Positions 41,531 through 63,114 of a stretch of 64,000 nt of DNA are shown one piece after another. The DNA lies in NCBI RefSeq assembly GCF_055900595.2, contig NZ_CM148325.1. One strand, written 5' to 3'. A program made the translations under genes and the position numbers. The notes beneath the pieces were generated by a model that was not told where the DNA came from, did no database searches, and worked only from the letters and a program-made list of their open reading frames with translations. The stretch's first letter is position 1. Every line of letters begins with the position of its first letter.

Positions 41531-41725
41531 TTTCCACTCCTTGTGGTGGCGAAAAAATATCACAAACTAGCATAGCGCCTTGTATGACAATTCAGCGAGT
41601 GAATATTTTGAAAATTCAGACAATAAACTGAGCATTCTTTTTCTCTCTCCATCATGCTTATGGCAAACTACGGTTTTTGCACCATTTTCGCTGCCTCGTC
41701 GGGCAACAGAGGAAGAATAATCCAT

Positions 41726-44023: not shown

Positions 44024-44029
44024 TGCTTT

Positions 44030-44160: not shown

Positions 44161-44295
44161 ACGGGCAAAATATGCCCTTTAAGTATTTATCTGATTCTGC
44201 AACTGAATCCTTCCGCTCAGGCTAACCCCGCCATTATCAACTATGCTTTTCTCTTAATTCGCTGAAAACAACAGTAAAAGAATGAGGAAAGCATC

Positions 44296-45213
44296 ATGCC
44301 ACTCTCAAAGCTCTGGGCAGGTTCACTGGTTTTGTTGGCAGCCGTGAGCCTGCCGCTACAGGCGGCTTCCCCCGTTAAAGTCGGTTCGAAAATCGATACC
44401 GAAGGCGCGCTACTCGGCAACATTATTTTGCAAGTGCTGGAAAGCCACGGCGTACCGACGGTGAATAAAGTCCAGTTGGGAACCACGCCGGTGGTGCGCG
44501 GGGCGATTACTTCCGGTGAACTGGATATCTATCCGGAATATACCGGCAATGGCGCGTTTTTCTTTAAAGATGAAAACGATGCGGCGTGGAAAAATGCCGG
44601 GCAAGGCTACGAGAAAGTCAAAAAGCTCGATGCAGAACAAAACAAGTTAATCTGGCTGACGCCTGCGCCTGCAAATAACACCTGGACCATCGCCGTGCGT
44701 CAGGATGTTGCAGAGAAAAACAAACTCACTTCGCTTGCCGACCTGAGTCGTTATCTGAAAGACGGTGGCACCTTCAAACTGGCGGCCTCAGCAGAGTTTA
44801 TCGAACGCGCCGATGCCTTACCCGCTTTTGAAAAAGCCTATGGCTTTAAGCTCAGTCAGGATCAGTTGCTGTCACTGGCCGGTGGCGACACTGCGGTGAC
44901 AATCAAAGCTGCTGCCCAGCAAACATCCGGCGTTAATGCGGCGATGGCTTACGGCACTGACGGCCCGGTCGCGGCGCTGGGGCTGCAAACCTTAAGCGAT
45001 CCGCAAGGCGTGCAACCTATCTACGCGCCTGCACCAGTGGTGCGTGAATCGGTGTTGAAGGAGTATCCGCAAATGGCACAGTGGCTACAGCCAGTCTTCG
45101 CCAGCCTCGATGCAAAAACATTGCAGCAACTGAATGCCAGCATTGCTGTGGAAGGTCTGGATGCCAAAAAAGTGGCTGCCGACTACCTGAAACAAAAAGG
45201 GTGGACGAAGTAA
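44296..45213 (+). CDS. osmF: Glycine betaine ABC transporter periplasmic binding protein
   Basis: 305 aa with signal peptide; first gene of osmF-yehYXW operon. Confidence 0.9.
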   Translation: MPLSKLWAGSLVLLAAVSLPLQAASPVKVGSKIDTEGALLGNIILQVLESHGVPTVNKVQLGTTPVVRGAITSGELDIYPEYTGNGAFFFKDENDAAWKNAGQGYEKVKKLDAEQNKLIWLTPAPANNTWTIAVRQDVAEKNKLTSLADLSRYLKDGGTFKLAASAEFIERADALPAFEKAYGFKLSQDQLLSLAGGDTAVTIKAAAQQTSGVNAAMAYGTDGPVAALGLQTLSDPQGVQPIYAPAPVVRESVLKEYPQMAQWLQPVFASLDAKTLQQLNASIAVEGLDAKKVAADYLKQKGWTK

Positions 45214-45219
45214 TTTCCC

Positions 45220-46377
45220 GTGACTTATTTCCGTATTAATCCTGTTCTGGCGCTGCTGCTGTTGCTGACGGCAATCGCAGCGGCGCTGCCGTTTATCAGT
45301 TACGCGCCTAATCGTTTAGTCTCTGGTGAGGGGCGTCATCTCTGGCAGTTGTGGCCGCAAACGATCTGGATGCTGGTGGGCGTATGTTGCGCCTGGCTGA
45401 CAGCCTGTTTTATTCCCGGTAGAAAAGGCAGCATTTTTGCACTCATCCTGGCGCAACTCGTCTTCGTGTTGCTGGTATGGGGGGCAGGAAAGGCGGCGAC
45501 ACAACTGGCGCAAAATGGCAGTGCGCTGGCGCGTACCAGCCTCGGCAGTGGTTTCTGGCTGGCTGCGGCGCTGGCACTGCTGGCCTGTAGCGATGCCATC
45601 CGCCGAATTTCCACGCATCCGCTGTGGCGCTGGTTGTTGCATATGCAGATTACCATCATTCCGCTGTGGTTGCTGTACTCCGGCACGCTTAACGATCTTT
45701 CGCTAATGAAAGAATACGCCAACCGTCAGGATGTGTTTAATGACGCGCTGGCGCAACATCTGACGTTGCTGTTTGGTGCGGTGCTGCCTGCGTTAGTGAT
45801 TGGTGTGCCGCTGGGCGTCTGGTGCTACTTTTCCACTGCGCGGCAGGGGGCGATTTTTTCTCTGCTGAATGTCATTCAGACCGTGCCTTCGGTGGCGCTC
45901 TTTGGCCTGTTGATTGCGCCGCTTGCCGCGCTGGTTACGGCCTTTCCGTGGCTGGGTAAGCTCGGCATAGCAGGAACCGGAATGACACCCGCACTGATTG
46001 CGCTGGTGCTCTATGCCTTGCTGCCGCTGGTGCGCGGTGTGGTAGTCGGCTTGAACCAGATCCCGCGCGATGTGCTGGAGAGCGCCAGAGCGATGGGCAT
46101 GAGCGGGGCGCAGCGATTCCTGCATGTTCAGTTACCGCTGGCGTTACCGGTATTTCTGCGCAGCCTGCGGGTGGTGATGGTGCAAACCGTCGGCATGGCG
46201 GTGATTGCGGCGTTAATCGGCGCAGGCGGTTTTGGTGCGCTGGTTTTCCAGGGGCTGCTAAGCAGTGCCATTGATTTAGTGTTGCTGGGGGTGATCCCGG
46301 TAATTGTTCTGGCGGTGCTGATCGACGCGCTGTTCGATTTGCTTATCGCACTGCTGAAGGTGAAACGTAATGATTGA
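45220..46377 (+). CDS. yehY: Glycine betaine ABC transporter permease
   Basis: 385 aa polytopic; GTG start. Confidence 0.88.
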
Positions 46378-47296
46378 ATTTAGCCATGTCAGCAAACTGT
46401 TCGGCACACAAAAAGCCGTTAACGATCTCAATCTCAATTTTCAGGAGGGGAGTTTTTCGGTGCTGATTGGTACATCAGGCTCCGGTAAATCCACCACTCT
46501 GAAAATGATTAACCGCCTGGTGGAGCATGACAGTGGCGTGATCCGCTTTGCCGGAGAAGAAATTCGCTCGCTGCCAGTGCTGGAGTTACGCCGCCGGATG
46601 GGCTATGCCATTCAATCTATTGGCCTGTTTCCCCACTGGAGCGTGGCGCAAAACATTGCTACTGTGCCGCAATTACAAAAATGGCCTCGGGCGCGGATCG
46701 ACGACCGTATTGACGAATTAATGGCGCTACTGGGGCTGGAGCCAAATTTGCGTGAGCGTTATCCGCATCAGCTTTCCGGCGGTCAGCAGCAACGTGTGGG
46801 AGTGGCGCGCGCACTGGCTGCCGATCCGCAAGTCTTATTGATGGATGAACCCTTTGGCGCACTGGACCCGGTAACGCGCGGCGCGTTGCAACAAGAGATG
46901 ACGCGTATTCACCGTTTGTTGGGGCGTACCATTGTGCTGGTCACTCATGATATTGATGAGGCGCTACGGCTGGCAGAACATCTGGTATTGATGGATCACG
47001 GTGAAGTGGTGCAGCAGGGCAATCCGCTGACGATGCTGACTCGTCCGGCGAATGATTTCGTCCGCCAGTTTTTTGGGCATAGTGAACTGGGGGTCCGCCT
47101 GCTTTCGTTACGTAGCGTGGCGGATTACGTGCGTCGCGAAGAACGGGCAGAAGGTGAGGCACTGGCAGAAGAGATGACGCTACGCGATGCGCTCTCCCTG
47201 TTTGTCGCGCGGGGTTGTGAAGTGCTGCCGGTGGTGAACACGCAGGGCGAGCCTTGCGGCACGCTGCATTTTCAGGATCTGCTGGTGGAGGCGTAA
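46370..47296 (+). CDS. yehX: Glycine betaine ABC transporter ATP-binding protein
   Basis: 308 aa; Walker [10 protein letters not shown]; 8 nt overlap with yehY. Confidence 0.92.
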
Positions 47297-47300
47297 GCGT

Positions 47301-48032
47301 ATGAAGATGTTGCGCGATCCGCTGTTCTGGCTCATTGCTTTGTTTGTGGCACTGATTTTCTGGCTGCCTTACAGCCAGCCGCTGTTTTCTGCCTTGTTCC
47401 CACAACTGCCACGCCCCGTTTATCAGCAAGAAAGTTTTGCTGCTCTGGCACTGGCTCATTTCTGGCTGGTGGGAATTTCGAGTTTGTTTGCGGTGATCAT
47501 TGGCACAGGTGCCGGAATTATTGTTACTCGCCCGTGGGGCGCGGAATTTCGCCCACTGGTGGAAACTATTGCCGCCGTTGGGCAGACTTTTCCGCCCGTT
47601 GCGGTGCTGGCGATTGCCGTTCCGGTGATTGGGTTTGGTCTGCAACCCGCGATTATCGCCTTGATCCTGTACGGTGTGCTGCCCGTCCTGCAGGCGACAC
47701 TTGCCGGGCTGGGAGCGATTGATGCCAGCGTGACAGAAGTTGCTAAGGGTATGGGAATGAGCCGTGGACAGCAACTGCGTAAGGTCGAGCTACCGCTGGC
47801 GGCTCCGGTGATTCTGGCGGGTGTGCGAACTTCGGTGATTATCAACATTGGTACGGCGACGATCGCCTCAACGGTAGGGGCCAGCACGCTGGGTACGCCC
47901 ATCATCATCGGGCTTAGCGGATTTAATACCGCGTATGTGATCCAGGGGGCGTTACTGGTGGCACTGGCGGCGATCATCGCAGACCGCCTGTTTGAAAGGC
48001 TGGTGCAGGCGCTTAGCCAGCACGCAAAATAA
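47301..48032 (+). CDS. yehW: Glycine betaine ABC transporter permease
   Basis: 243 aa membrane ORF. Confidence 0.9.
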
Positions 48033-48120
48033 AGGTATAACCTGCGAGCATGACGCCACCAATTCCGCCTAACGCCATAAAAAGGAACAGGGCGATGACC
48101 CCAATTTTAGCTATGCGCAT
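48013..48120 (-). CDS. yohO: Small membrane protein YohO (35 aa)
   Basis: Minus strand encodes [35 protein letters not shown]; 3' end overlaps yehW 3' end by 20 nt; below ORF-track cutoff. Confidence 0.75.
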
Positions 48121-48179
48121 AATGCACTCCTTATGTTAACGAAAGGATTGTACAGTAAAGCGCATTTGTTAACGAATCA

Positions 48180-48911
48180 TTAAATGCCGAGTGGGAAAAT
48201 ATCATGGCCTTGTTCCTGCCAACTGGTAAGTTGCTGCTGTTGGGCAGAGGTTCGATTTTCACCGCACCACACCAGCAATGTACGGCCTTCGAACAGTTCA
48301 GGGCGTAGTTGATTGAGCGAGTGGGCGAGGACATCAATGCGCCATCCTTGTTGACTGGCAATCCAGCCCTCTAGCCACAGACGGGTGGTATCCTGAATAT
48401 TCCAGCCAACCACCAGCGCATCTTTACCTTGTTTTTTACGTGCCGAAGCCAGACAAATGGCGATGTAGTTGATCAGTACGCCGTCGAGGATCGCCAGCAG
48501 CGCCTGGAGAGTCGGTTGTTGGCACTGAAGTCGTCGGCGCAGAGGAATAAACAGGTGCGTGGTGAGTGTCTGGGCGGGGTAATCCTGACCGCGCTCTTTG
48601 ATCCACGTTCGCAGGCTATGCAGATTGCCGCTTTGCAGGTAAGTCAGTAATGTTTCTTGCTGATCGCGCCAGCCGTTCTGCACATCAACATTTTCATTAC
48701 TGAGCAGCATTTTAACTTTGCTGACCTGCACGCCGTTGTCGATCCAGCGTTTGATCTCGCGGATCCGGTCAATATCGGCATCATTGAACAGCCGATGACC
48801 GCCGTCTGTCCGTTGCGGTTTCAGCAATCCGTAACGCCTCTGCCACGCGCGTAACGTGACAGGGTTAATATCACAAAGCAACGCCACTTCACCAATTGTG
48901 TAAAGCGCCAT
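48180..48911 (-). CDS. mlrA: MerR-family regulator MlrA (csgD activator)
   Basis: 243 aa MALYTIGEVALLCDINPVTLRAWQRRYGLLKPQRTDGGHRLF... Confidence 0.92.
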   Translation of the reverse strand: MALYTIGEVALLCDINPVTLRAWQRRYGLLKPQRTDGGHRLFNDADIDRIREIKRWIDNGVQVSKVKMLLSNENVDVQNGWRDQQETLLTYLQSGNLHSLRTWIKERGQDYPAQTLTTHLFIPLRRRLQCQQPTLQALLAILDGVLINYIAICLASARKKQGKDALVVGWNIQDTTRLWLEGWIASQQGWRIDVLAHSLNQLRPELFEGRTLLVWCGENRTSAQQQQLTSWQEQGHDIFPLGI

Positions 48912-49132
48912 CGTCTCACCCTTGCTCGCGAGGTCCCAGTTTAACTTTAGACGCAGTTTTGCGAACCAGGTAGTTTTGCCCGTTTTTTGTTCATCTATAG
49001 GGTGATTTTATTTTTGCCAGGCGATTTTGAGTGATCGTACTCACGAATTCTCATTTTTCTGCAAGAGTTCAAAGAAAGTTAAACGCAGGCAATGTATGTT
49101 ACGCGTTTTAAAGGGAAGTGTGGTTTGCGGGT

Positions 49133-50818
49133 ATGTACGATTTTAATCTGGTGTTGCTGCTGCTTCAGCAGATGTGCGTTTTTTTAGTCATTGCGTGGTT
49201 AATGAGTAAAACGCCATTATTCATACCGTTAATGCAGGTCACGGTTCGTCTGCCGCATAAATTTCTCTGCTACATCGTCTTTTCCATCTTCTGCATCATG
49301 GGCACCTGGTTTGGGCTGCATATTGACGATTCTATTGCCAATACCCGTGCGATAGGCGCGGTAATGGGCGGCTTACTCGGCGGTCCGGTCGTCGGTGGGC
49401 TGGTTGGTCTGACCGGCGGGTTACATCGATATTCGATGGGGGGCATGACCGCGCTAAGTTGCATGATCTCGACCATCGTTGAAGGATTGCTCGGCGGCCT
49501 GGTACACAGCATCCTGATCCGTCGCGGGCGCACTGATAAAGTCTTTAACCCCATTACCGCCGGTGCCGTCACGTTCGTCGCTGAAATGGTGCAAATGTTG
49601 ATCATCCTGGCGATCGCCCGACCTTATGAAGATGCGGTGCGTCTGGTGAGTAATATTGCTGCGCCAATGATGGTCACCAATACCGTCGGCGCGGCGCTGT
49701 TTATGCGTATATTGCTCGATAAACGCGCGATGTTTGAAAAATACACTTCGGCTTTTTCTGCTACTGCGCTGAAAGTGGCTGCCTCGACGGAAGGCATTTT
49801 GCGCCAGGGGTTTAACGAAGTGAACAGCATGAAAGTGGCACAGGTGCTGTATCAGGAGCTGGATATTGGTGCAGTCGCGATTACCGATCGAGAGAAATTG
49901 CTGGCCTTTACCGGAATTGGTGACGACCACCATTTACCCGGCAAACCGATTTCTTCGACTTATACCTTAAAAGCGATTGAAACCGGTGAAGTGGTCTACG
50001 CCGATGGCAACGAAGTGCCTTACCGTTGCTCGTTGCATCCGCAATGCAAACTGGGTTCGACGCTGGTAATTCCGTTGCGTGGTGAAAATCAGCGGGTGAT
50101 GGGTACCATCAAATTGTATGAAGCCAAAAACCGTTTATTCAGTTCAATCAACCGCACGCTGGGCGAGGGGATTGCGCAACTGCTTTCGGCGCAGATCCTC
50201 GCCGGGCAATATGAGCGGCAAAAAGCGATGCTCACCCAGTCAGAGATCAAACTGCTTCACGCCCAGGTGAACCCCCATTTTCTGTTCAATGCGCTTAACA
50301 CCATTAAAGCGGTGATCCGACGCGACAGCGAACAGGCCAGTCAGCTGGTGCAGTATCTTTCCACTTTTTTCCGTAAAAACTTAAAGCGGCCTTCGGAGTT
50401 TGTTACTCTCGCCGACGAAATTGAACATGTGAACGCTTATCTGCAAATTGAAAAGGAGCGCTTCCAGTCGCGGTTGCAGGTCAGCATTGCTATTCCGCAA
50501 GAATTATCCCAGCAGCAATTGCCCGCGTTTACCCTGCAACCGATTGTGGAAAACGCCATTAAACATGGGACATCACAACTGCTGGATACAGGGCGAGTAG
50601 CAATCAGCGCCCGACGTGAGGGGCAACATTTGATGCTGGAGATCGAAGACAATGCTGGCTTGTATCAACCGGTAACCAATGCCAGCGGGCTGGGGATGAA
50701 TCTGGTGGATAAGCGTTTACGTGAACGGTTTGGCGATGACTATGGGATAAGCGTCGCCTGTGAACCTGATAATTACACCCGAATAACGTTACGACTGCCA
50801 TGGAGGGACGAGGCATGA
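49133..50818 (+). CDS. btsS: LytS-type sensor histidine kinase (pyruvate-sensing BtsS/YehU)
   Basis: [26 protein letters not shown]...; 5TM-LytS, GAF, His kinase. Confidence 0.9.
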
Positions 50819-51534
50819 TTAAAGTCTTAATTGTCGATGACGAACCGTTAGCACGGGAGAACCTGCGCGTATTTTTGCAGGAGCAGAGTGATATTGAAAT
50901 TGTCGGCGAGTGTTCAAACGCTGTAGAAGGGATCGGCGCGGTGCATAAACTGCGCCCGGACGTGCTGTTCCTCGATATCCAGATGCCGCGCATCAGTGGT
51001 CTGGAAATGGTGGGAATGCTCGACCCGGAACATCGTCCGTATATCGTTTTTCTCACCGCGTTTGACGAATACGCCATTAAAGCCTTTGAAGAACATGCAT
51101 TTGATTATCTCCTGAAGCCAATTGATGAAGCGCGGCTGGAGAAAACGCTGGCGCGTTTGCGTCAGGAGCGCAGCAAGCAGGATGTTTCGCTGTTACCGGA
51201 AAATCAACAGGCGCTGAAATTTATCCCTTGTACGGGGCATAGTCGGATTTATTTGCTGCAAATGAGAGATGTAGCATTTGTCAGCAGTCGGATGAGCGGT
51301 GTCTACGTTACCAGCCACGAAGGGAAAGAAGGTTTTACCGAACTGACTTTGCGCACCCTGGAGAGCCGTACACCACTACTGCGCTGCCATCGTCAGTATC
51401 TGGTTAACCTCGCGCATTTACAGGAGATTCGCCTGGAAGATAACGGTCAGGCTGAGTTGATTTTGCGTAATGGTTTAACCGTCCCTGTCAGCCGCCGCTA
51501 TCTGAAAAGTTTAAAAGAGGCGATTGGCCTGTAA
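50815..51534 (+). CDS. btsR: LytTR-family response regulator BtsR/YehT
   Basis: [18 protein letters not shown]...; 4 nt overlap with btsS. Confidence 0.92.
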
Positions 51535-51580
51535 AAGACTGCTAAAATGGCTTTTTGCCTCATCAACACCTGAAGGCCTC

Positions 51581-52051
51581 ATGCTTAGTAATGATATTCT
51601 GCGCAGCGTGCGCTACATTTTGAAAGCCAATAATAACGACCTGGTGCGCATTCTGGCGCTGGGTAATGTCGAAGCCACTGCGGAACAGATCGCCGTCTGG
51701 CTACGCAAAGAAGACGAAGAAGGGTTTCAGCGTTGTCCGGACATTGTTCTGTCTTCATTCCTGAATGGCCTGATTTATGAAAAACGTGGCAAGGATGAGT
51801 CAGCGCCGGCACTGGAGCCGGAACGTCGCATTAATAACAACATCGTGCTGAAAAAATTACGTATCGCGTTTTCGCTGAAAACTGATGATATTCTGGCGAT
51901 CCTTACCGAACAGCAGTTCCGCGTTTCGATGCCGGAAATTACGGCGATGATGCGTGCACCGGATCATAAAAACTTCCGCGAATGCGGCGATCAATTTTTA
52001 CGTTATTTTTTGCGTGGACTGGCAGCGCGCCAGCATGTGAAGAAAAGCTAA
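51581..52051 (+). CDS. yehS: DUF1456 protein YehS
   Basis: MLSNDILRSVRYILKANNNDLVRILALG... (156 aa from internal ATG). Confidence 0.85.
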   Translation: MLSNDILRSVRYILKANNNDLVRILALGNVEATAEQIAVWLRKEDEEGFQRCPDIVLSSFLNGLIYEKRGKDESAPALEPERRINNNIVLKKLRIAFSLKTDDILAILTEQQFRVSMPEITAMMRAPDHKNFRECGDQFLRYFLRGLAARQHVKKS

Positions 52052-52093: not shown

Positions 52094-52555
52094 TTATTTC
52101 ACTTCTTTAAAACCAGCGGCTTTCATCACCAGTTCCATTTGCGCCATAGTGATACCTTTTTTGGCATCTTCAGCAGAAACGTTGATACCTGAAATACCCT
52201 GCAGGGCTTTAAAATCAACTTTTTCCATATCGATAGTCACGTTTTCCTGAGCATAAGTATCGGTAAAGGTTAATTTTTCTTCAACGCCAGGGATATTTTT
52301 ATATTTGGCACTTAACGGCTCAAGTGTCTTGGCAGCATCTTCTTTGGTGGTTGCACCAATGGAGGCAAATTGAATTTTGGTTTCAGAAGATTGCTTAAGA
52401 ACCTTGTCACCTTTGTAGACATAGGTAATAGCAATTTCAGTACCGTTCAGATTAGCGCTAAATTTCTTCGATTCTTCTTTGTCACCGCAGCCAGCAAGAG
52501 AGAAAACCAGAACAGATGCAACAACAAGGGAAAACAGCTTATTGAAAGCCTTCAT
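52094..52555 (-). CDS. yehR: Lipoprotein YehR (DUF1307)
   Basis: MKAFNKLFSLVVASVLVFSLAGC (lipobox) ...; 153 aa. Confidence 0.88.
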   Translation of the reverse strand: MKAFNKLFSLVVASVLVFSLAGCGDKEESKKFSANLNGTEIAITYVYKGDKVLKQSSETKIQFASIGATTKEDAAKTLEPLSAKYKNIPGVEEKLTFTDTYAQENVTIDMEKVDFKALQGISGINVSAEDAKKGITMAQMELVMKAAGFKEVK

Positions 52556-52686
52556 GTAAAACTCCATTTTATTTAATCAAGGAACTGGTGACCACACCAG
52601 GGGCCATATAGGATATGCCTAATACCTTGGCGTGAGCAGTCCGGAACTGGAGTAGAACTCTTTGTAAAAAGCACTATTTGTCCTTG

Positions 52687-55051
52687 TTACTCAAGCAAGG
52701 TTAATAATTGTTCGCAAAGCAAAACGCAGTTATTCATTGCATCTCCCCGTGCCTCGCCTTCTGTATTACGAAATTGTCCCAACACATGTGCCAGCCGATA
52801 AAAACCCACCGCAGTGAGGTCATTCGCCAGCAACTCTGCCTGACCAATAGCACTCTGTTCCTGATAGCGCCAGCCGTTATGGAGCAGTTGAATAAGTAAC
52901 GCCTGGCAGCGCATCAGCAACTGATGAGCGGTAGACGGCACAGGCAAAACGCTGGCAGAAGGTAGCGGTGCCACAGGCGCAGTTTCTGCGTCCAGCGCCC
53001 AGGCGAGGGTTTGCGTCATCATTACTCGTGGTTCCAGTGTCAATTGCCCCTCAGCAAAATTGATAAACCCAGAAACCAGACTAACGGGATCTTCTGTTTG
53101 TTGTAACAGAGCTGCCATGCGTTCAACAGCAAAGGGCGCACTGGCTGAAGCTGGCAGTGATAACGTCAGCACATTATCTTCACCTTCGCCACTGATTACC
53201 TGCGCATTCTGCTTTCAGCGCGGGGAAATCGAAACGTAACAGGGCCTCAACTGCGCTTTGTGGCATTATTTTTTTTTCGTATTGTTCTTCTCCGGTTCTG
53301 CTCCATTCCTTAAACCCCAGTAGCCAAAGGATTTGCTGTTCTGGCGTTAAAGGGATGAAAGACGTTTCCCAGCTTTCCTTTTCAATTAGTGGCAGATCGG
53401 TAAATAAGGTTTGCTGTGATGCCTGATATTTCGCGATTTCACTGAATCTGGATATGTCAGTGTGACTGATTAACTCTGTAATTCCAGGTGTGATGTCAGT
53501 GACGGAAGGGATGGGAAGTACCGGTAAATCAAATACGGGTATTACATTCTTTTTCTTATTTATTGCCCACGGTGGAGCGACAAGCAGCTCTGGCAACATA
53601 TCCGCAGTGGCATACTCACATTCTTCAGCGACTGACTGAGGACGACATTCAGATAATATGCCTGCCGCCTTAGCATTAACCCAGGGAATGACGTCGCATA
53701 CTAACTCTGGCGTGACGGTAACCAGTTTGACAAGCGCGTTGCGCCACTGTGCGTCTTCATGTATTGCCAGCAAAGTTGCATAAGCGGCAATAGCCGCAGC
53801 GGGATGTTTTTGGCAGGCTTTGCTTAAGTATTCCAGGTGCTTTTTCTTGCTATTTACACCGAGGATCAGAATTTGAATCGCATCCGGGTGATTCGTTTTC
53901 CATAGCCATTTGACAAGATCTTCAGTCTCGCTGATGCGCTCGAAGAGATAAGTGGGATTGTCAGAATGCTCTTCCACAAACTCAGTAAGTATCCGGCTTA
54001 CACCGCGCACGCCATTATTCGCCAGCAACATTGCCAGATAAGCGCGAAAATCACGATGCAATGGTGGGAAGTCGTATTTTTCGGTTGTAGTGGGAGCAGC
54101 GTCATTGGTTACCACCAGTCTTAACCAGGTCATCGCAGGGACGTTTTGATCTGCATAATGTAGCGCCATAGCATTGGCAATATCCGGGCGTTCAGGGATC
54201 AGTAATGCAGCAAAAGGTTGCCGTGCGGGGGATAGCGTCGGAATAGCAGTAAGCACTTTATCCACACAGCGTTGCCACTCATCTTCTGAAGCGAGTGAAA
54301 GATGATGACATAGACGTTGATGCCAACTCGGTAGCGATTCTGCTTCGTGATTAGGTGGAATGATGGTGGTTACTGCGCCTTTTACTGGTTTATATTTGAG
54401 TTGAAGAGCGAGAAGGGCGATTTCAACGGCACTTTCCAGACCACAGCGAATGACTAAGTCATCGACCAGTTCATCTTGAGAGTAAGAGTTCCAAAAGCCC
54501 CAGAGCAATGCTGCATCAGATTGCGCACTCCCTGTCGGTTGATTACCCTGAACTCGCATTTGTAACTCAGCAAAAGCCTGCTGCCAGTTTTCTGGATAAG
54601 AGCGGTAATTATTGTCGGGGTCATATGCCCTCGTGTTATTCGCGATGCGCTTCCATATTTGGCCATCTTTGTGCAGATAATTGATATCTCTGGGGCGAGA
54701 GCGATGTGGAAAAGCAAATCGGTTAATATCGTCGGTTAGCGGAATGGCTGCATCATCAGCCAGCCATGGGCGTTTGTTTTTACTCTCAGGTGAAGTTTCA
54801 ACTTCAGGAGTGACTTTGGTGACGGGGGGGATATGTACGTTTGCCGAAGCGTCTTCCACATAGCCTTTTTTCGTTTTCTCAGCGATAAGCTTCAGTTCCG
54901 CTTTTTCCGCCGCCGCAGCATCCGCAAAGCTTTTTATCTGGCTTTGCCCTTGGGTGCCAACTTTTCCCCAACTGATATGCAACTCGTTACCTTGCTGCCC
55001 CACCGCCCAGAATTTATGCGATTTTTCGTCCTGATAGATATAACTCTTCAT
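52687..55051 (-). pseudogene. molR/yehQ-like gene with N-terminal WGR domain, split into 623 aa and 161 aa ORFs by an apparent +1 frameshift near 53173-53205
   Basis: N-terminus SHKFWAVGQQGNELHISWGKVGTQGQ is WGR-like; two same-strand ORFs overlap in different frames with a 30 nt window where a single indel would fuse them. Confidence 0.55.
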
Positions 55052-55191
55052 CCGCGTTCCCTGTATTTATATCCAGTTATAAGCGGATGCTAGCAGTTAA
55101 TGAAAAAAATTAAGAGCGTTGAACAAACAAGAAAACAACTTTAGGAATTCATAAAGAAAAGGCGCTGTCGATGCAGCGCCTTGAAGGGGGA

Positions 55192-57225
55192 TTATTTCAC
55201 CTGATGGCCCGGTTTAGCACCGGCATCCGGGCTTAGCAGGAAGATATCTTTCCCGCCAGGACCGGCAGCCATCACCATGCCTTCGGAGATACCGAAGCGC
55301 ATTTTACGTGGTGCCAGGTTAGCCACCATAATGGTGTGACGACCAATCAGTGCCTGCGGATCCGGGTAAGCAGAACGAATGCCGGAGAAGACATTGCGTT
55401 TTTCACCGCCGAGATCCAGCGTCAGGCGCAGCAGTTTGTCAGAACCTTCAACAAACTCTGCGTTTTCGATCAACGCCACGCGCAGGTCAACTTTGGCGAA
55501 GTCGTCAAAGGTGATGGTTTCCTGAATCGGATCATCTGCCAGCGGGCCAGTAACTGGTGCGGCAGTGGCTTTCACTTCTTCTTTAGATGCTTCCACCAGT
55601 GCTTCAACCTGCTTCATGTCAATACGGTTATACAGCGCCTTGAACGGATTCACTTTGTGGCCCAGCAGCGGTTGCTGGATACCATGCCAGGTCAGTTCCG
55701 TATTGAGGAATGCTTCTGCACGCTCGGTCAGTTTCGGCAGTACCGGCTTCAGGTAAGTCATCAGCACGCGGAACAGGTTTATGCCCATCGAGCAAATTGC
55801 CTGCAGGTCGGCATCGCGGCCTTCCTGTTTCGCCACCACCCACGGAGCCTGTTCATCGACATAGCGGTTAGCCAGATCAGCCAGCGCCATAATTTCGCGC
55901 ACTGCTTTACCAAATTCGCGGCTTTCCCATGCTTCACCAATCACTTCAGCGGCATCCGTGAAGGTTTTGTACAACTGCGGGTCAGCCAGTTCGCTTGCCA
56001 ACACGCCGTCAAAACGCTTGTTGATAAAGCCCGCGTTACGGGATGCCAGGTTTACAACCTTATTAACGATATCGGCATTCACGCGCTGGACGAAATCCTC
56101 GAGGTTGAGATCGATATCATCAATGCGCGAAGAGAGTTTCGCAGTGTAGTAGTAACGCAGGCTGTCAGCGTCAAAATGATTCAGCCAGGTGCTGGCTTTA
56201 ATAAAGGTGCCGCGAGACTTGGACATCTTCGCGCCGTTCACCGTTACATAGCCGTGAACAAACAGGTTGGTCGGCTTGCGGAAGTTGCTACCTTCCAACA
56301 TGGCAGGCCAGAACAGGCTGTGGAAGTAAACAATATCTTTACCGATGAAGTGGTACAGCTCGGCGGTGGAGTCTTTCTTCCAGTATTCATCGAAGCTTAC
56401 GCTGTCGCCGCGCTTGTCACACAGATTCTTGAAAGAACCCATGTAGCCAATCGGTGCGTCCAGCCAGACGTAGAAATATTTGCCCGGCGCGTTCGGAATT
56501 TCAAAACCGAAGTAAGGGGCGTCGCGGGAGATATCCCATTGTTGCAGGCCAGATTCAAACCACTCCTGCATTTTGTTTGCCACCTGCTCCTGCAACGCAC
56601 CGCTGCGGGTCCATGCCTGCAGCATTTCGCTGAAAGAGGGCAGATCAAAGAAGAAGTGTTCAGAATCACGCATTACCGGGGTAGCGCCAGAAACCACCGA
56701 TTTCGGCTCGATCAGTTCAGTCGGGCTGTAGGTCGCGCCGCAGACTTCGCAGTTATCGCCGTATTGATCCGGGGATTTACATTTCGGGCAGGTGCCTTTT
56801 ACAAAACGGTCCGGCAGGAACATGCCTTTTTCCGGATCGTACAGCTGAGAGATGGTGCGGTTTTTAATAAAACCGTTTTCTTTCAGGCGAGAGTAGATAA
56901 GTTCTGACAACTGGCGGTTCTCTTCGCTGTGCGTCGAGTGATAGTTGTCATAGCTGATGTTAAAGCCTGCGAAATCAGTCTGATGCTCCTGACTCATTTC
57001 GCCAATCATCTGCTCCGGAGTGATACCAAGCTGCTGAGCTTTCAACATGATTGGTGTACCGTGGGCATCGTCGGCGCAGATGAAGTTGACCTCGTGGCCG
57101 CGCATTCGCTGGTAACGGACCCAGACATCAGCCTGGATGTGCTCCAGCATATGGCCGAGGTGGATTGAGCCGTTAGCGTACGGCAGTGCGCACGTCACCA
57201 GAATTTTCTTCGCGACTTGAGTCAT
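55192..57225 (-). CDS. metG: Methionyl-tRNA synthetase
   Basis: [28 protein letters not shown]... (HIGH motif), KMSKS present; 677 aa. Confidence 0.96.
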
Positions 57226-57356
57226 AGTAGGCATTACTTCTTAATAGTGAAAAGGGGTTAGATAGTACCAAATGGGAAAATGTTAAGTAAGTACTTCTCT
57301 ATATTCTTCAGGTAAACTATCAGCTGATGGTTTATCTATACAAAAAAGGAGTCGGG

Positions 57357-58466
57357 ATGAACGAACAATCCCAGGCCAAATCACCAGAAGCCTTGCGCGC
57401 AATGGTCGCCGGGACACTGGCCAATTTTCAGCACCCAACCCTGAAGCATAACCTCACCACGCTGAAAGCGTTGCACCATGTCGCCTGGATGGACGACACG
57501 TTGCATGTGGAACTGGTTATGCCATTCGTCTGGCATAGCGCGTTCGAAGAGTTAAAAGAGCAATGTAGCGCTGAACTGCTGCGCATCACCGGGGCGAAAG
57601 CTATCGACTGGAAACTGTCGCACAATATCGCCACCTTAAAACGCGTGAAGAATCAGCCGGGAATTAACGGCGTGAAGAACATCATTGCGGTCAGCTCCGG
57701 TAAAGGCGGCGTGGGTAAATCCTCCACGGCGGTAAATCTGGCGCTGGCACTGGCGGCGGAAGGGGCGAAAGTCGGCATTCTGGACGCCGATATCTACGGC
57801 CCATCAATACCCACCATGCTGGGCGCAGAAAATCAGCGTCCAACTTCGCCGGACGGTACCCATATGGCACCGATTATGTCTCATGGACTGGCAACCAATT
57901 CAATTGGTTATCTGGTCACTGACGACAATGCGATGGTGTGGCGTGGTCCGATGGCGAGCAAGGCGTTAATGCAGATGTTGCAGGAAACCTTGTGGCCGGA
58001 TCTCGACTATCTGGTGCTTGATATGCCGCCAGGCACCGGTGACATTCAATTGACACTGGCACAAAACATTCCAGTAACTGGCGCGGTAGTGGTCACCACC
58101 CCGCAGGACATTGCGTTGATCGATGCGAAAAAAGGCATTGTGATGTTCGAGAAAGTCGAGGTTCCGGTGCTCGGTATTGTCGAGAACATGAGTGTGCATA
58201 TTTGCAGTAACTGTGGTCACCATGAACCGATTTTCGGTACCGGTGGTGCAGAGAAACTGGCCGAGAAATACCACACGCAGTTGCTGGGGCAGATGCCGTT
58301 ACACATCTCCTTACGTGAAGATCTCGATAAAGGCACGCCAACGGTTATCAGCCGTCCGGAGAGCGAATTTACTGCTATCTACCGCCAGCTGGCTGACCGC
58401 GTTGCAGCCCAGCTTTATTGGCAGGGAGAAGTCATTCCTGGCGAGATTTCCTTCCGCGCGGTCTGA
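57357..58466 (+). CDS. apbC: Fe-S cluster carrier ATPase ApbC/Mrp
   Basis: MNEQSQAKSPEALRAMV...; P-loop SGKGGVGKSS; CxxC motif. Confidence 0.93.
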   Translation: MNEQSQAKSPEALRAMVAGTLANFQHPTLKHNLTTLKALHHVAWMDDTLHVELVMPFVWHSAFEELKEQCSAELLRITGAKAIDWKLSHNIATLKRVKNQPGINGVKNIIAVSSGKGGVGKSSTAVNLALALAAEGAKVGILDADIYGPSIPTMLGAENQRPTSPDGTHMAPIMSHGLATNSIGYLVTDDNAMVWRGPMASKALMQMLQETLWPDLDYLVLDMPPGTGDIQLTLAQNIPVTGAVVVTTPQDIALIDAKKGIVMFEKVEVPVLGIVENMSVHICSNCGHHEPIFGTGGAEKLAEKYHTQLLGQMPLHISLREDLDKGTPTVISRPESEFTAIYRQLADRVAAQLYWQGEVIPGEISFRAV

Positions 58467-58496
58467 CGCGTATTAACCTTTTTGGTTGTTTTTCGT

Positions 58497-58537
58497 ACAC
58501 CGCAGAGATGTTACATTGATGCGGTGTATTTGTTTTT
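58497..58537 (+). terminator. Rho-independent terminator after apbC
   Basis: ACACCGCA-N15-TGCGGTGT followed by ATTTGTTTTT. Confidence 0.7.
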
Positions 58538-58728
58538 GCCGCATTAATGAACACTTATTTAATGCTGCGAATATTCTGCGGACCTTCGTCCGAAACTCTA
58601 TAAAGTCGATTGATTGTACAGGCAATGCTTCATTATCATCCTTCGTGGCTGTGTAGTGGATGTACAGCTATAGTTTGTTATGCACTCATTCTATCCAGGC
58701 ATAACCTTTACTACAGGGATAACGTTCA

Positions 58729-59010
58729 ATGAATAAGTACTGGCTGTCAGGAATTATTTTTCTTGCCTATGGAATGGCTTCTCCCGCGTTCTCTTTACAG
58801 ACTGCCACATTAACGATTAATGGCAGGATCAGTCCCCCAACATGCAGTATGGCAATGGTTAATGGTCAACCTCAACAGCATTGTGGTCAGTTAACGTATA
58901 ATGTTGATACTCGTCATCAGGTTTCTTCGCCAGTTAAAGGTGTGACGACAGAAGTGGTTGTTGCAGGTAGTGATAGCAAACGTCGAATCGTGTTAAATCG
59001 CTACGATTAA
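58729..59010 (+). CDS. yehE: DUF2574 small secreted protein YehE
   Basis: 93 aa with signal peptide MNKYWLSGIIFLAYGMASPAFS. Confidence 0.8.
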   Translation: MNKYWLSGIIFLAYGMASPAFSLQTATLTINGRISPPTCSMAMVNGQPQQHCGQLTYNVDTRHQVSSPVKGVTTEVVVAGSDSKRRIVLNRYD

Positions 59011-59305
59011 TTTGCCACCCTGGTTTTTTAAGCGGATTTAGAAAGCTGAAATCATTCGTGTGAATGATTTAAGCTTTTTTATTGATATTAATAATACCAT
59101 TTAAAAAAATCTGCATTAATTAATAGATGTGATAAATATTTAATATGCTTAAGTATTTGTTGTATTTATATTGCAATAGTTAATTTGTTTTAAATCAATA
59201 AAACAATATGTTTACATTGCGGCAACTTTTTTGATGTGAGAAATTTGTTTCCAAGAGATACAGACTCTTAACAACCAAAAAATAAATTTTATTAAGGAAC
59301 ATATT

Positions 59306-59848
59306 ATGAAACGTTCAATTATTGCTGCCGCTGTCTTTTCTTCTTTTTTTATGAGCGCTGGGGTATTTGCCGCAGACGTTGATACCGGAACATTAACCAT
59401 TAAAGGGAATATTGCAGAATCTCCGTGTAAATTCGAAGCGGGTGGTGATTCAGTAAGTATTAATATGCCAACTGTACCAACCACTGTCTTTGAAGGTAAA
59501 GCTAAATACTCGACCTATGATGATGCAGTCGGTGTAACCAGCAGCATGTTAAAAATTAGCTGTCCGAAAGAAGTTGCTGGTGTAAAACTCTCGTTGATTA
59601 CCAACGATAAAATAACCGGAAACGATAAGGCGATAGCCAGTAGCAACGATACCGTGGGGTACTATCTCTATTTAGGTGATAACAGCGATGTCCTGGATGT
59701 TTCTGCACCTTTTAACATTGAGAGTTATAAAACAGCGGAAGGTCAATATGCTATTCCGTTTAAAGCAAAATACCTGAAGCTGACAGATAATTCAGTGCAA
59801 TCAGGTGATGTGTTATCTTCTCTGGTTATGCGTGTGGCGCAGGATTAA
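59306..59848 (+). CDS. yehD: Fimbrial major subunit (chaperone-usher Yeh fimbriae)
   Basis: 180 aa; signal peptide MKRSIIAAAVFSSFFMSAGVFA; fimbrin-like. Confidence 0.85.
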   Translation: MKRSIIAAAVFSSFFMSAGVFAADVDTGTLTIKGNIAESPCKFEAGGDSVSINMPTVPTTVFEGKAKYSTYDDAVGVTSSMLKISCPKEVAGVKLSLITNDKITGNDKAIASSNDTVGYYLYLGDNSDVLDVSAPFNIESYKTAEGQYAIPFKAKYLKLTDNSVQSGDVLSSLVMRVAQD

Positions 59849-59884
59849 TAAATAAAATTTCAAATTTCTCCAGGTAATAAACAT

Positions 59885-59910
59885 GGCCGCTATCCCCATG
59901 GCGGCCTTTT
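59885..59910 (+). terminator. Hairpin plus T-run after yehD (attenuator before chaperone/usher genes)
   Basis: GGCCGC-N10-GCGGCC followed by TTTT. Confidence 0.6.
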
Positions 59911-59928
59911 AATTTAAGAGGCATTAAG

Positions 59929-60603
59929 ATGAAAGGATTATTAGCTTTACTCATTTCTTCTATGGTCCTTCCTGCGCATGCCGGAATTGTTATCTACGGG
60001 ACGCGCATTATTTACCCGGCAGAAAATAAAGAAGTGATGGTGCAGTTGATGAACCAGGGAAACCGTTCTTCGCTGCTGCAGGCGTGGATTGATGATGGCG
60101 ATACGTCGTTACCACCAGAAAAAATTCAGGTTCCTTTCATGTTAACGCCACCAGTGGCCAAAATAGGGGCAAATTCCGGGCAGCAAGTAAAAATCAAAAT
60201 TATGTCGAATAAACTGCCCACTAATAAAGAGAGCATTTTTTATCTGAATGTTCTGGATATTCCACCAAATAGTCCAGAGCAAGAGGGCAAGAATGCACTG
60301 AAATTTGCAATGCAAAACAGAATCAAATTGTTTTACCGGCCTGCGGGTATTGCACCGGTAAATAAAGCGACATTTAAAAAGTTACTGGTAAATCGCAGTG
60401 GCAATGGATTGGTGATAAAAAATGACTCAGCAAATTGGGTAACGATTTCGGATGTCAAAGCTAATAATGTCAAAGTCAATTATGAAACTATTATGATTGC
60501 CCCCTTAGAAAGTCAGAGTATTAATGTCAAAAGTAATAATGCGAATAACTGGTATCTGACCATTATCGATGACCATGGCAACTATATTAGTGACAAAATT
60601 TAA
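59929..60603 (+). CDS. yehC: Periplasmic fimbrial chaperone (PapD-like)
   Basis: 224 aa; signal peptide; RBS AAGAGG. Confidence 0.85.
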   Translation: MKGLLALLISSMVLPAHAGIVIYGTRIIYPAENKEVMVQLMNQGNRSSLLQAWIDDGDTSLPPEKIQVPFMLTPPVAKIGANSGQQVKIKIMSNKLPTNKESIFYLNVLDIPPNSPEQEGKNALKFAMQNRIKLFYRPAGIAPVNKATFKKLLVNRSGNGLVIKNDSANWVTISDVKANNVKVNYETIMIAPLESQSINVKSNNANNWYLTIIDDHGNYISDKI

Positions 60604-60618
60604 TTGCAGGAGCTGCCT

Positions 60619-63099
60619 ATGTTGAGAATGACCCCACTTGCATCAGCAATCGTAGCGTTATTGCTCGGCATTGAAGCTTATGCAGCTGAAGAAACCTTTG
60701 ATACCCATTTTATGATAGGTGGAATGAAAGACCAGCAGGTTGCAAATATTCGTCTTGATGATAATCAACCCTTGCCGGGGCAGTATGACATCGATATTTA
60801 TGTCAATAAGCAATGGCGCGGGAAATATGAGATTATTGTTAAAGACAACCCGCAAGAAACATGTTTATCAAGGGAAATTATCAAGCGGTTAGGCATTAAT
60901 ACCGATAACTTTGCCAGCGGTAAGCAATGTTTAACATTTGAGCAACTTGTTCACGGTGGGAGCTATACCTGGGATATCGGAGTTTTTCGTCTCGATTTCA
61001 GTGTACCGCAGGCGTGGGTGGAAGAACTGGAAAGTGGCTATGTTCCACCGGAAAACTGGGAGCGGGGTATTAATGCGTTTTATACCTCTTATTATGTGAG
61101 TCAGTATTACAGCGACTATAAAGCGTCGGGTAATAGCAAGAGTACATATGTACGTTTTAACAGCGGGTTAAACTTACTGGGGTGGCAACTGCATTCTGAT
61201 GCCAGTTTAAGTAAAACAAATAGCAATCCAGGGGTGTGGAAAAGCAATACCCTGTATCTGGAACGTGGATTTGCCCAACTTCTCGGCACGCTTCGCGTGG
61301 GTGATATGTACACATCAAGCGATATTTTTGATTCTGTTCGCTTCAGCGGTGTGCGGTTGTTTCGTGATATGCAGATGTTGCCTAACTCGAAACAAAATTT
61401 TACTCCACGGGTGCAGGGGATTGCTCAGAGTAACGCGCTGGTAACTATTGAACAGAACGGTTTTGTGGTTTATCAGAAAGAGGTTCCTCCTGGCCCGTTT
61501 GCGATTACAGATTTGCAGTTGGCCGGTGGTGGAGCAGATCTTGATGTCAGCGTGAAAGAGGCGGACGGTTCGGTAACCACCTATCTGGTGCCTTATGCAG
61601 CAGTGCCGAATATGCTGCAACCCGGCGTGTCGAAATATGATTTTGCGGCAGGTCGTAGCCATATTGAAGGGGCGAGCAAACAAAGTGATTTTGTTCAGGC
61701 GGGTTATCAGTATGGTTTTAATAACTTATTGACGCTGTATGGCGGATCGATGGTCGCGAATAATTATTACGCGTTCACTTTGGGGACTGGCTGGAATACA
61801 CGCATTGGTGCCATTTCCGTCGATGCCACGAAGTCGCATAGTAAACAAGACAACGGCGATGTGTTTGACGGGCAAAGTTATCAAATTGCCTACAACAAAT
61901 TTGTGAGCCAAACGTCGACGCGTTTTGGTCTGGCGGCCTGGCGTTATTCGTCGCGTGATTACCGGACATTTAACGATCACGTTTGGGCAAACAATAAAGA
62001 TAATTATCGCCGTGATGAAAACGATATCTATGACATTGCCGATTATTACCAGAACGATTTTGGCCGTAAAAATAGCTTTTCTGCCAATATGAGCCAGTCA
62101 TTGCCAGAAGGCTGGGGTTCTGTGTCCTTAAGTACGTTATGGCGAGATTACTGGGGGCGTAGCGGCAGCAGTAAGGATTATCAGTTGAGTTATTCCAACA
62201 ACCTGCGACGGATAAGCTATACCCTCGCGGCAAGCCAGGCTTATGACGAGAATCATCATGAAGAGAAACGTTTTAATATTTTTATAGCGATTCCCTTTGA
62301 TTGGGGTGATGACGTTACGACGCCTCGTCGGCAAATATATATATCTAACTCAACGACGTTTGATGATCAGGGGTTTGCCTCAAATAATACGGGATTATCG
62401 GGAACCGTTGGAAGCCGGGATCAATTTAACTATGGGGTCAACTTAAGTCATCAGCATCAGGGAAATGAAACGACAGCTGGCGCGAATTTGACCTGGAACG
62501 CGCCGGTTGCGACAGTGAATGGCAGTTATAGTCAGTCGAGTGCTTATCGACAAGCTGGAGCCAGTATTTCAGGGGGCATTGTCGCCTGGTCGGGTGGCGT
62601 TAATCTGGCGAACCGTCTTTCCGAAACGTTTGCTGTGATGAATGCGCCAGGAATTAAAGATGCTTATGTCAATGGGCAAAAATATCGCACAACAAACCGT
62701 AATGGAGTGGTGGTATACGACGGAATGACACCTTATCGGGAAAATCACCTGATGCTGGATGTGTCGCAAAGCGATAGCGAAGCAGAATTACGTGGCAACC
62801 GGAACATTGCCGCCCCTTTTCGCGGCGCGGTTGTACTGGTTAATTTTGATACCGATCAGCGCAAGCCCTGGTTTATAAAAGCGTTAAGAACGGATGGGCA
62901 ACCATTAACGTTTGGTTATGAAGTCAATGATATCCATGGTCATAATATTGGCGTTGTCGGCCAGGGAAGCCAGTTATTTATTCGCACCAATGAAGTACCG
63001 CCATCGGTTAATGTAGCAATTGATAAGCAACAAGGGCTTTCATGCACAATCACCTTCGGTAAAGAGATTGATGAAAGTAGAAATTATATTTGCCAGTAA
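60619..63099 (+). CDS. yehB: Fimbrial outer-membrane usher
   Basis: MLRMTPLASAIVALLLGIEAYA...; 826 aa usher. Confidence 0.9.
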   Translation: MLRMTPLASAIVALLLGIEAYAAEETFDTHFMIGGMKDQQVANIRLDDNQPLPGQYDIDIYVNKQWRGKYEIIVKDNPQETCLSREIIKRLGINTDNFASGKQCLTFEQLVHGGSYTWDIGVFRLDFSVPQAWVEELESGYVPPENWERGINAFYTSYYVSQYYSDYKASGNSKSTYVRFNSGLNLLGWQLHSDASLSKTNSNPGVWKSNTLYLERGFAQLLGTLRVGDMYTSSDIFDSVRFSGVRLFRDMQMLPNSKQNFTPRVQGIAQSNALVTIEQNGFVVYQKEVPPGPFAITDLQLAGGGADLDVSVKEADGSVTTYLVPYAAVPNMLQPGVSKYDFAAGRSHIEGASKQSDFVQAGYQYGFNNLLTLYGGSMVANNYYAFTLGTGWNTRIGAISVDATKSHSKQDNGDVFDGQSYQIAYNKFVSQTSTRFGLAAWRYSSRDYRTFNDHVWANNKDNYRRDENDIYDIADYYQNDFGRKNSFSANMSQSLPEGWGSVSLSTLWRDYWGRSGSSKDYQLSYSNNLRRISYTLAASQAYDENHHEEKRFNIFIAIPFDWGDDVTTPRRQIYISNSTTFDDQGFASNNTGLSGTVGSRDQFNYGVNLSHQHQGNETTAGANLTWNAPVATVNGSYSQSSAYRQAGASISGGIVAWSGGVNLANRLSETFAVMNAPGIKDAYVNGQKYRTTNRNGVVVYDGMTPYRENHLMLDVSQSDSEAELRGNRNIAAPFRGAVVLVNFDTDQRKPWFIKALRTDGQPLTFGYEVNDIHGHNIGVVGQGSQLFIRTNEVPPSVNVAIDKQQGLSCTITFGKEIDESRNYICQ

Positions 63100-63114
63100 T
63101 AGTCAGGTGGTTCT

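Follow-up and report, generated by a model that had tools for sequence, protein, structure and literature searches.

RavA-ViaA and NorQ-NorD are described pairs of a MoxR ATPase and a VWA protein, and two products of the Escherichia coli yeh cluster, YehL (AAA_5/MoxR) and YehP (VWA), constitute such a pair. Their partners, which carry DUF5682, SWIM and WGR/DUF4132 domains, differ from those of RavA or NorQ, and we know of no substrate or phenotype for YehL/YehP. NCBIfam models gave only weak, subthreshold domain-level matches (GvpN, MadB, cobaltochelatase), in agreement with a MoxR/VWA pair, and YehL has lent its name to one of seven MoxR subfamilies (PMC3893208). Disruption of the region has been described in Shigella sonnei lineage 2/3, which bears an approximately 7 kb deletion of yehM-yehL-zorO (PMC12795559), and in ST131 L1a, in which the transposon TnMB1860 is inserted in the metG/DUF4132/yeh region (PMC9334617). 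Our search of the literature on the yeh genes, DUF4132 and DUF5682 returned these two disruption reports, gene lists, the naming of the MoxR subfamily and the zorO paper, and nothing else. In the window, by which we mean the whole stretch of 64,000 nucleotides analyzed here, the pair is absent, and what is left of the cluster is very probably the scar of a chromosomal deletion.

The window and the K-12 metG-yehR locus share the same chromosomal position and the same flanking genes, and the apbC-metG and yehR-yehS-btsRS flanks are collinear with K-12 and other genomes. The metG-yehR gap (52568-55191) measures 2,624 bp, in line with the spacing of about 2.6 kb given in an earlier note on this DNA, vs. 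14,891 bp in a K-12 derivative (locus L002), a difference of 12,267 bp. K-12 has the long arrangement: between metG and yehR lie a molR′ pseudogene, yehI, yehK, yehL, yehM, yehP and yehQ, the genes that the note had listed, although its figure of about 10 kb fell short of the interval found. Its further claim that yehI-yehQ is missing holds for yehI-yehP and for most of yehQ, but the yehQ 3′ end (52687-53207) has been kept. YehK, YehL, YehM and YehP gave zero tblastn matches across the whole 64-kb window, so that a MoxR-class AAA+ ATPase with a VWA partner was not found at the locus, and the Yeh MoxR/VWA module would be unable to function in the window's strain. An Rfam scan of the whole window gave no match within the scar. 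The gap holds two open reading frames (ORFs), both on the minus strand, of 623 aa (53180-55051) and 161 aa (52687-53172). In the flanking genes, metG shows dN/dS values of 0.01-0.03 against other strains, and the start chosen for yehR by PGAP in relatives yields 153 aa. The native molR promoter presumably lies in the metG-molR spacer; a consensus sigma-70 promoter scan found no molR site, a result uninformative as to the presence of a promoter. With the native molR upstream region intact, the strain could still produce a 623-aa polypeptide containing WGR.

Features of the metG-yehR interval and its flanks in the window
Feature	Coordinates	Strand	Evidence or remark
yehR, YehR family lipoprotein, intact left flank	52094..52567	-	ORF and annotation
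yehQ-yehR spacer, kept	52568..52686	.	Collinear with K-12 and other loci
yehQ 3′ remnant, codons ~492-663 plus stop	52687..53207	-	172 in-frame codons from 53205
Patch in yehQ remnant, 17 differences from the 8 junction-sharing complete genomes	52809..52996	.	Mismatch map, three-way comparison
Tail of 623-aa ORF, 9 wrong-frame codons of yehQ-derived sequence (CAGNQWRR)	53180..53207	-	Translation across junction
Deletion junction (probable), out-of-frame	53207..53210	.	BLAST boundary 53207/53208; ambiguous within AT dinucleotide 53209-53210
molR-type (yehH) 5′ remnant, codons 1-614 of about 1,265	53208..55051	-	Megablast, BLASTP, Pfam
A9 homopolymer (T9 on plus strand) in molR remnant	53269..53277	-	A8 variant elsewhere gives 594-aa ORF
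metG-molR spacer, fully kept	55052..55191	-	Collinear with intact loci
metG intrinsic terminator, stem-loop	55159-55182		Terminator-like site inside metG-molR spacer
metG, methionine-tRNA ligase, intact right flank	55192..57234	-	ORF; metG annotation in collinear loci

The metG-proximal piece derives from molR. Its megablast matches are metG-adjacent genes annotated as "DUF4132 domain-containing protein" in thousands of genomes, and the 623-aa ORF is 94.8% identical in amino acid sequence, over residues 1-617, to the intact 1,265-aa MolR of locus L003. A molR-like gene with an N-terminal WGR domain next to metG, as the note had described it, is indeed present: Pfam places WGR (PF05406) at residues 8-69 (E = 7e-18). 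DUF4132 (PF13569) gave no Pfam match in the 623-aa ORF; in intact MolR it occupies residues 385-568 of the C-terminal 651 aa, the half that is deleted in the window. The allele itself is too diverged from that of K-12 for blastn alignment over most of its length. Intact molR alleles are functional genes, kept under purifying selection (dN/dS 0.19-0.23). A sequence search of the PDB returned, as its sole match, the WGR domain of an uncharacterized Bacteroides protein (2ra8), and none for YehQ.

The yehR-proximal piece derives from yehQ. It is 91-92% identical in nucleotide sequence to yehQ 3′ ends in thousands of genomes, and 89% identical in amino acid sequence to YehQ residues ~492-663 (of 666); a dN of 0.27 against K-12 clashes with this identity, probably through a slicing or alignment error, and was not used. 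The SWIM zinc finger (PF04434) lies at residues 56-88 of intact YehQ and is gone from the remnant, which starts at ~492. The 161-aa ORF is part of this remnant rather than an independent gene: it is the portion 3′ of the first in-frame GTG (53170-53172), a GTG that encodes the Val of the YehQ motif GEDNVLTLS, and, apart from this chance internal codon, the yehQ stump lacks a start.

The two pieces meet abruptly. With the interval as query, every match to positions 1-640 was a yehQ 3′ end and every match to positions 641-2624 was the metG-proximal DUF4132 gene (5,424 genomes). Because the join is out of frame, the molR frame ends 9 codons past the junction, and the 623-aa ORF consists of MolR residues 1-614 followed by 9 out-of-frame codons up to a stop at 53180-53182. 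Compared base by base with intact alleles of molR and yehQ, the junction showed a microhomology of at most ~2 nt, a value that could be off by 1-2 bases, since the parental breakpoint sequence is deduced from closest intact alleles that are themselves diverged. A search for a closer intact parental haplotype found none above ~96% on the molR side or ~92% on the yehQ side, the best being MFDS1022581 (95.8%) and IMT16316 (92.4%), respectively, and within the 90% protein cluster the intact members reach just 86-89% identity. A gapped reading with a 6-nt microhomology, TGCGCA, was rejected; it predicts two A's more than the window has.

Collectively, these data argue strongly that a chromosomal deletion, in the simplest case one event, joined molR codon 614 to approximately codon 492 of yehQ. 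The likely route is illegitimate recombination, at a site where the otherwise dissimilar molR and yehQ have a microhomology of no more than ~2 nt. [quoted passage not shown] The deletion probably also took a third DUF4132 paralogue and the type I toxin-antitoxin locus zorO-orzO. Measured against K-12, the net loss would amount to 12.3 kb; against the most similar of the intact loci, to about 16.6 kb. A series of two or more nested deletions would leave a sequence indistinguishable from that of a single event. The molR and yehQ stumps are both pseudogenes, and the 623-aa product would be nonfunctional.

The frame change noted earlier at about 53.2 kb is where it was said to be, but its cause is the deletion junction at ~53207-53210 rather than an indel within one gene. 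Had a single molR-like gene suffered a small frameshift, be it a true indel or a sequencing error, its repair would restore a WGR protein of ~790 aa, and the two ORFs do lie on the same strand only ~10 nt apart. Yet the 3′ ORF matches YehQ 492-663, with MolR, the second paralogue and YehI showing no significant similarity to it, and the DNA matches flip from yehQ to molR at 53207/53208 across thousands of genomes; the one split gene of the earlier note is thus a piece of MolR (1-614) and a piece of YehQ (~492-663), two unrelated genes. A sequencing indel is at odds with an identical junction in eight complete genomes and hundreds of other assemblies, and we give a frameshift within one gene, of either origin, virtually no credence. 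The note had also proposed a recombinational fusion of paralogues, in which homologous recombination among molR, yehI and yehQ would have looped out the intervening DNA. Tandem paralogues do exist at the locus, MolR sharing 32% identity with a second WGR/DUF4132 protein and 27% with YehI; however, MolR and its partner at the junction, YehQ, are not paralogues (best BLASTP E = 0.2), the intact molR and yehQ alleles have only ~2 nt in common at the breakpoint, and crossing-over between aligned paralogues would not be expected to produce an out-of-frame join. This route is highly improbable.

Nor does the note's remaining suggestion, an ancestral short form, agree with the structure of the remnants; the K-12-type block would then be an insertion gained by most other E. 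coli. The region is unusually diverse, and the window is 94-96% identical to K-12 here, as might be seen near an exchange hotspot. The stumps, however, are internal truncations, of molR without its C-terminal DUF4132 and of yehQ without its N-terminal SWIM domain, and their join creates a premature stop. Moreover, the long form is the rule: coverage of yehL-yehP reaches at least 80% in 5,213 of the 5,426 complete genomes (96%), with no match in 89, the long arrangement is present in K-12, MFDS1022581, an ST131-type strain and four draft genomes, and intact full-length MolR homologues (1,273 aa) occur in E. fergusonii. An ancestral short form is accordingly vanishingly improbable, and the short locus appears to be derived, with the long form as the common or ancestral state. 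A different kind of alternative accepts the deletion but holds that it was adaptive rather than neutral decay, and that the 623-aa WGR-containing MolR fragment is under selection as a functional neo-protein. In favor of this, the fragment retains its native upstream spacer, hundreds of contigs carry the ORF without change, and the repeated loss or disruption of the locus in other lineages (PMC12795559; PMC9334617) could reflect a cost of carriage. Against this, a frameshifted 594-aa form is common (123 blocks, with the 623-aa form in 453) and is seen with either left flank, the partner genes are all gone, and a recent origin of the allele accounts for the identity of its copies, with 0 differences over 5 kb; we regard this reading as very improbable. 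That the loss of the cluster together with zorO-orzO was itself selected, for example as the shedding of a costly conflict system or mobile-DNA barrier, and that the MolR fragment is expressed with an activity of its own, is likewise improbable.

The scar is not private to the window. The same molR::yehQ junction, without gaps, was found in 8 of 5,426 complete E. coli genomes, each with one place matching the scar sequence; there PGAP annotates two partial pseudogenes, a [quoted passage not shown] for the molR stump and a [quoted passage not shown] for the yehQ stump. The exact 623-aa ORF is present on 348 contigs and indexed in 453 blocks of the collection, and over 9,872 bp L012 (GCA_964249055.1) matches the window at 100% identity. 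The deletion allele is thus inherited, a marker for a set of E. coli lineages, and recombination has since placed it on different left-flank backgrounds. The window's version of the patch in the yehQ remnant is K-12-like, and the patch marks a breakpoint of recombination immediately to the left of the junction.

Copies of the allele show 0 differences over 5 kb, flanking genes included, an identity that its recent origin explains. Apart from its A-run, the molR remnant does not vary among the copies compared, and selection on it is for this reason not measurable. The A-run is A9 in the window and in L012-L014 and A8 in L010 and L011; the resulting 594-aa variant is 100% identical over its own length, is indexed in 123 blocks of the collection and is found on both left-flank backgrounds. 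The deletion allele is therefore decaying further, by homopolymer slippage from A9 to A8.

As a clean, lineage-marking deletion the scar could serve as a typing marker, and strains that bear it are natural knock-outs for yehLMPQ and the molR/yehI paralogues, a cluster without known function. The locus has been inactivated repeatedly, by point mutations in K-12, by IS1 replacement, by a transposon in ST131, by deletions in S. sonnei and KFu022 and by the deletion in the window. This repeated inactivation, combined with purifying selection where the genes are intact, implies that the cluster is conditionally dispensable. The recurrent-loss pattern may be more useful than the window's scar, which matters little by itself: conditional dispensability is relevant to tests of a conflict or defense function for the cluster, a role that the present findings do not establish.

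The cluster resembles vWA-MoxR ternary conflict systems in combining a MoxR ATPase and a vWA protein with extra large variable proteins, and it also shares with conflict systems a high allelic diversity of its WGR/DUF4132 genes (dS 0.13-0.38) and repeated loss. Its gene-wide dN/dS of about 0.2, however, shows no diversifying selection. The statement in the earlier note that the K-12 genes had been proposed to form a conflict-type system found no confirmation: Kaur et al. 2020 (PMC7159879), on vWA-MoxR conflict systems, nowhere mentions Yeh, SWIM, WGR or DUF4132, and PADLOC v2 gave no usable match. [quoted passage not shown] A conflict or defense role of the Yeh cluster is thus a conjecture, unconfirmed here.

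Compared with the other altered forms of the locus, the window is an instance of ordinary gene loss, of a scar type that public annotation (PGAP) already flags. The K-12 locus is also decayed, with molR frameshifted and interrupted by an internal stop and yehQ likewise bearing an internal stop, but K-12 physically keeps all of the genes (14.9 kb), whereas in the window 1.84 kb of molR, fused to 0.52 kb of yehQ, is all that is left. A scar of the same type is the molR::yehP fusion of KFu022, in which a 5′ WGR stump is joined to what remains of the 3′ part of a downstream gene; there, too, PGAP annotates two partial pseudogenes. In KTa005, by contrast, IS1 has replaced molR-yehR, a mechanism different from that in the window. 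The losses in KFu022, KTa005, S. sonnei and ST131 are independent inactivations with breakpoints and mechanisms of their own, and the molR::yehQ junction is specific to the window's own lineages (8 of 5,426 complete genomes).

The metG–yehR interval of the window is made up of the stumps of two unrelated genes, molR and yehQ. The compact arrangement described in the earlier note, in which metG and yehR lie 2,624 bp apart with a 623-aa and a 161-aa ORF between them, was borne out by the ORF list and the raw sequence. The 623-aa ORF carries a WGR domain at residues 8-69 (E = 7e-18) and no other significant Pfam domain. When the interval was queried by megablast against 5,426 complete Escherichia coli genomes, positions 1-640 (window 52568-53207) matched only the yehQ 3′ end and the yehQ–yehR spacer (thousands of genomes; 91-92% identity), and positions 641-2624 (window 53208-55191) matched only the 5′ part of the metG-adjoining DUF4132-family gene and the metG spacer, at 80-96% identity; the whole query was covered in one piece in just eight genomes, at 99.2-99.3% identity. 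In protein comparisons, the 623-aa ORF is 32% identical to the second tandem paralogue and 27% to YehI, none of MolR, the second paralogue and YehI is a significant match for the yehQ-frame stretch, and relatedness between intact MolR and intact YehQ is undetectable (best E = 0.2). All three Rfam matches in the window lie outside the scar; the Peptidase-S11 RNA is just upstream of a 313-aa ORF (38681-39622) at the position that pbpG occupies in the collinear stretch of K-12.

Coordinates of features in the window and in the intact loci compared (L003, locus of MFDS1022581; L004 and L006, other intact loci)
Feature	Position	Strand	Basis or comparison
metG	55192-57234	-	ORF list and raw sequence
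metG terminator hairpin	55159-55182		
623-aa ORF	53180-55051	-	ORF list and raw sequence; best match residues 1-617 of intact 1,265-aa MolR, MFDS1022581, 94.8% identity
161-aa ORF	52687-53172	-	ORF list and raw sequence
yehQ-frame stretch			Best match YehQ 492-663, 89% identity
yehR	52094-52567	-	ORF list and raw sequence
Window segment	53000-58000		0 differences from 8 complete genomes
Window segment	52682-52996		19 differences from 8 complete genomes
Window segment	46.5-53 kb		~1.3% divergence from 8 complete genomes
Window segment	40-52 kb		98.1% identity to 8 complete genomes
STnc490 Hfq-binding sRNA	32458-32581		Rfam gathering-level match
Peptidase-S11 cis-regulatory RNA	38605-38685		Rfam gathering-level match
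naRNA4 (CssrE)	39628-39705		Rfam gathering-level match
Three-paralogue array	L003 10240-17844		
Three-paralogue array	L004 8282-15856		
Three-paralogue array	L006 10001-17584		
zorO	L003 5853-5942		
zorO	L004 3992-4078		
zorO	L006 21675-21761, 22278-22364		

The earlier note had rightly recognized that a large block is missing and that a molR-like WGR stump is kept, and had seen in the remnant a single frameshifted gene, possibly formed by exchange between paralogues. The reading frame does change at the junction, which we compared with intact molR (L003, L004 and L006) and intact yehQ (K-12 and L005) alleles. The coding strand there reads ...CCC GCG CTG AAA GCA GAA / TGC GCA GGT AAT CAG TGG CGA AGG TGA, such that the MolR portion stops at Glu614 (...FDFPALKAE), where intact alleles continue FAKYHN..., and is followed by nine codons of yehQ-derived DNA out of frame (CAGNQWRR), with the stop at 53180-53182. 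The yehQ frame gives ...DAQVISGEGEDNVLTLS... for these bases, and it is within this motif that the GTG (Val) start of the 161-aa ORF is found. Since MolR and YehQ are unrelated and the matches are split between them, one frameshifted gene is ruled out, and the remnant is two stumps of two genes. The breakpoint falls inside an AT dinucleotide at 53209-53210 (BLAST boundary between 53207 and 53208), and molR and yehQ have ~2 nt in common there, with the parental sequence inferred because identity to the closest intact alleles reaches only 96% for molR and 92% for yehQ. So short a common sequence identifies the join as a product of illegitimate recombination, not of crossing-over between paralogues. 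A sequencing artefact is likewise excluded: the identical, gap-free junction is present in eight complete genomes, where PGAP annotates a [quoted passage not shown] adjoining a [quoted passage not shown] and the exact 623-aa sequence occurs on 348 contigs and is indexed in 453 assembly-collection blocks. Across 9,872 bp, the assembly GCA_964249055.1 matches the window at 100% identity.

Between 36348 and 56954 the window is only ~94.8-96.4% identical to K-12, the housekeeping gene metG included; nothing among the 5,426 complete genomes matches its left flank (40000-52000) above 98.5%, and the eight scar-bearing genomes match its right flank (57300-64000) at 99.8-99.9% identity. The haplotype is a mosaic. 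A 594-aa derivative of the ORF, found in 123 blocks of the assembly collection, has lost one A from an A9 run (53269-53277, coding strand), producing an immediate stop; the resulting A8 run is carried by two of the assemblies compared (L010 and L011). With copies on both left-flank backgrounds, this variant is the result of recurrent slippage, of recombination or of miscalled homopolymers. Divergence from the eight genomes changes abruptly along the window, and at 52800-52999 the window resembles K-12, with 2-3 mismatches per 100 bp, whereas the eight genomes have 10 per 100 bp relative to K-12. The deletion allele has thus come to lie on different left flanks, with a recombination breakpoint within the yehQ stump immediately to the left of the junction.

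As the earlier note had stated, the K-12 locus is long: in a K-12 derivative metG and yehR are separated by 14,891 bp containing molR (frameshifted, with an internal stop), yehI, yehK, yehL, yehM, yehP and yehQ (with an internal stop), making the window interval 12,267 bp shorter. Relative to the nearest intact loci (MFDS1022581, an ST131-type strain and four draft genomes), which have three tandem WGR/DUF4132 paralogues, the loss is ~16.6 kb. Three such paralogues stand beside metG in many E. coli; K-12 has two (molR′ and yehI). Domain mapping places DUF4132 in the C-terminal half of MolR and the SWIM finger at residues 56-88 of YehQ, both of them deleted, leaving the stumps with WGR at most, and YehK, YehL, YehM and YehP have no tblastn match within the 64-kb window. 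Between yehK and yehL, the nearest intact loci also encode the 29-aa type I toxin ZorO (MDTLTQKLTVLIAVLELLVALLRLIDLLK; PMC2887945), one or two copies of which occur in intact non-K-12 loci. Neither K-12 nor the window has it, and a toxin–antitoxin module was thus probably lost in the deletion too.

Among the 5,426 complete genomes, coverage of the yehL–yehM–yehP block reaches at least 80% in 5,213, 89 have no match to it at all, and the window's scar is confined to 8. The locus has been lost independently in KFu022, which has a molR(5′)::yehP(3′) fusion scar and a frameshifted yehQ (L015 5001-6656), and in KTa005, where an IS1X2 element replaces everything from molR through yehR (L016 5248-5945); K-12 itself carries point-mutation pseudogenes. 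Elsewhere, Shigella sonnei lineages 2 and 3 have a ~7 kb deletion taking yehM, yehL and zorO (PMC12795559), ST131 sublineage L1a has a resistance transposon in the “metG/DUF4132/yeh region” (PMC9334617), and the whole block was deliberately removed from the reduced-genome strain DGF-298 (PMC10652928). Intact molR alleles are under purifying selection (dN/dS 0.19-0.29; metG, 0.01-0.03), and the metG-proximal alleles show deep synonymous divergence between strains (dS 0.13-0.38). The Yeh cluster looks functional but conditionally dispensable. The observation in the earlier note was correct and its interpretation right in part only; the scar is an ordinary, already annotated deletion polymorphism, and neither activity of the retained WGR fragment nor selection for the loss is likely.

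The statement in the earlier note that these genes have been proposed to form a conflict system found no backing in the vWA–MoxR conflict-system paper, where neither the genes nor their domains appear. No PADLOC model matched the cluster proteins, NCBIfam gave only sub-threshold matches to GvpN, MadB and cobaltochelatase, the PDB matched only an unrelated WGR-domain structure, and the literature searched gave no phenotype or substrate for the cluster. A conflict role would fit the high allelic diversity and the repeated loss, and both are just as much to be expected of any accessory cluster in this chromosomal region, a recombination-rich segment near the O-antigen (rfb) locus where the window is only 94-96% identical to K-12. 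Of the seven MoxR AAA+ subfamilies, one has YehL as its type member (PMC3893208). Together with the VWA protein YehP, YehL makes up the usual MoxR/VWA pair, partnered here by DUF5682 (YehM), SWIM (YehQ) and WGR/DUF4132 proteins.
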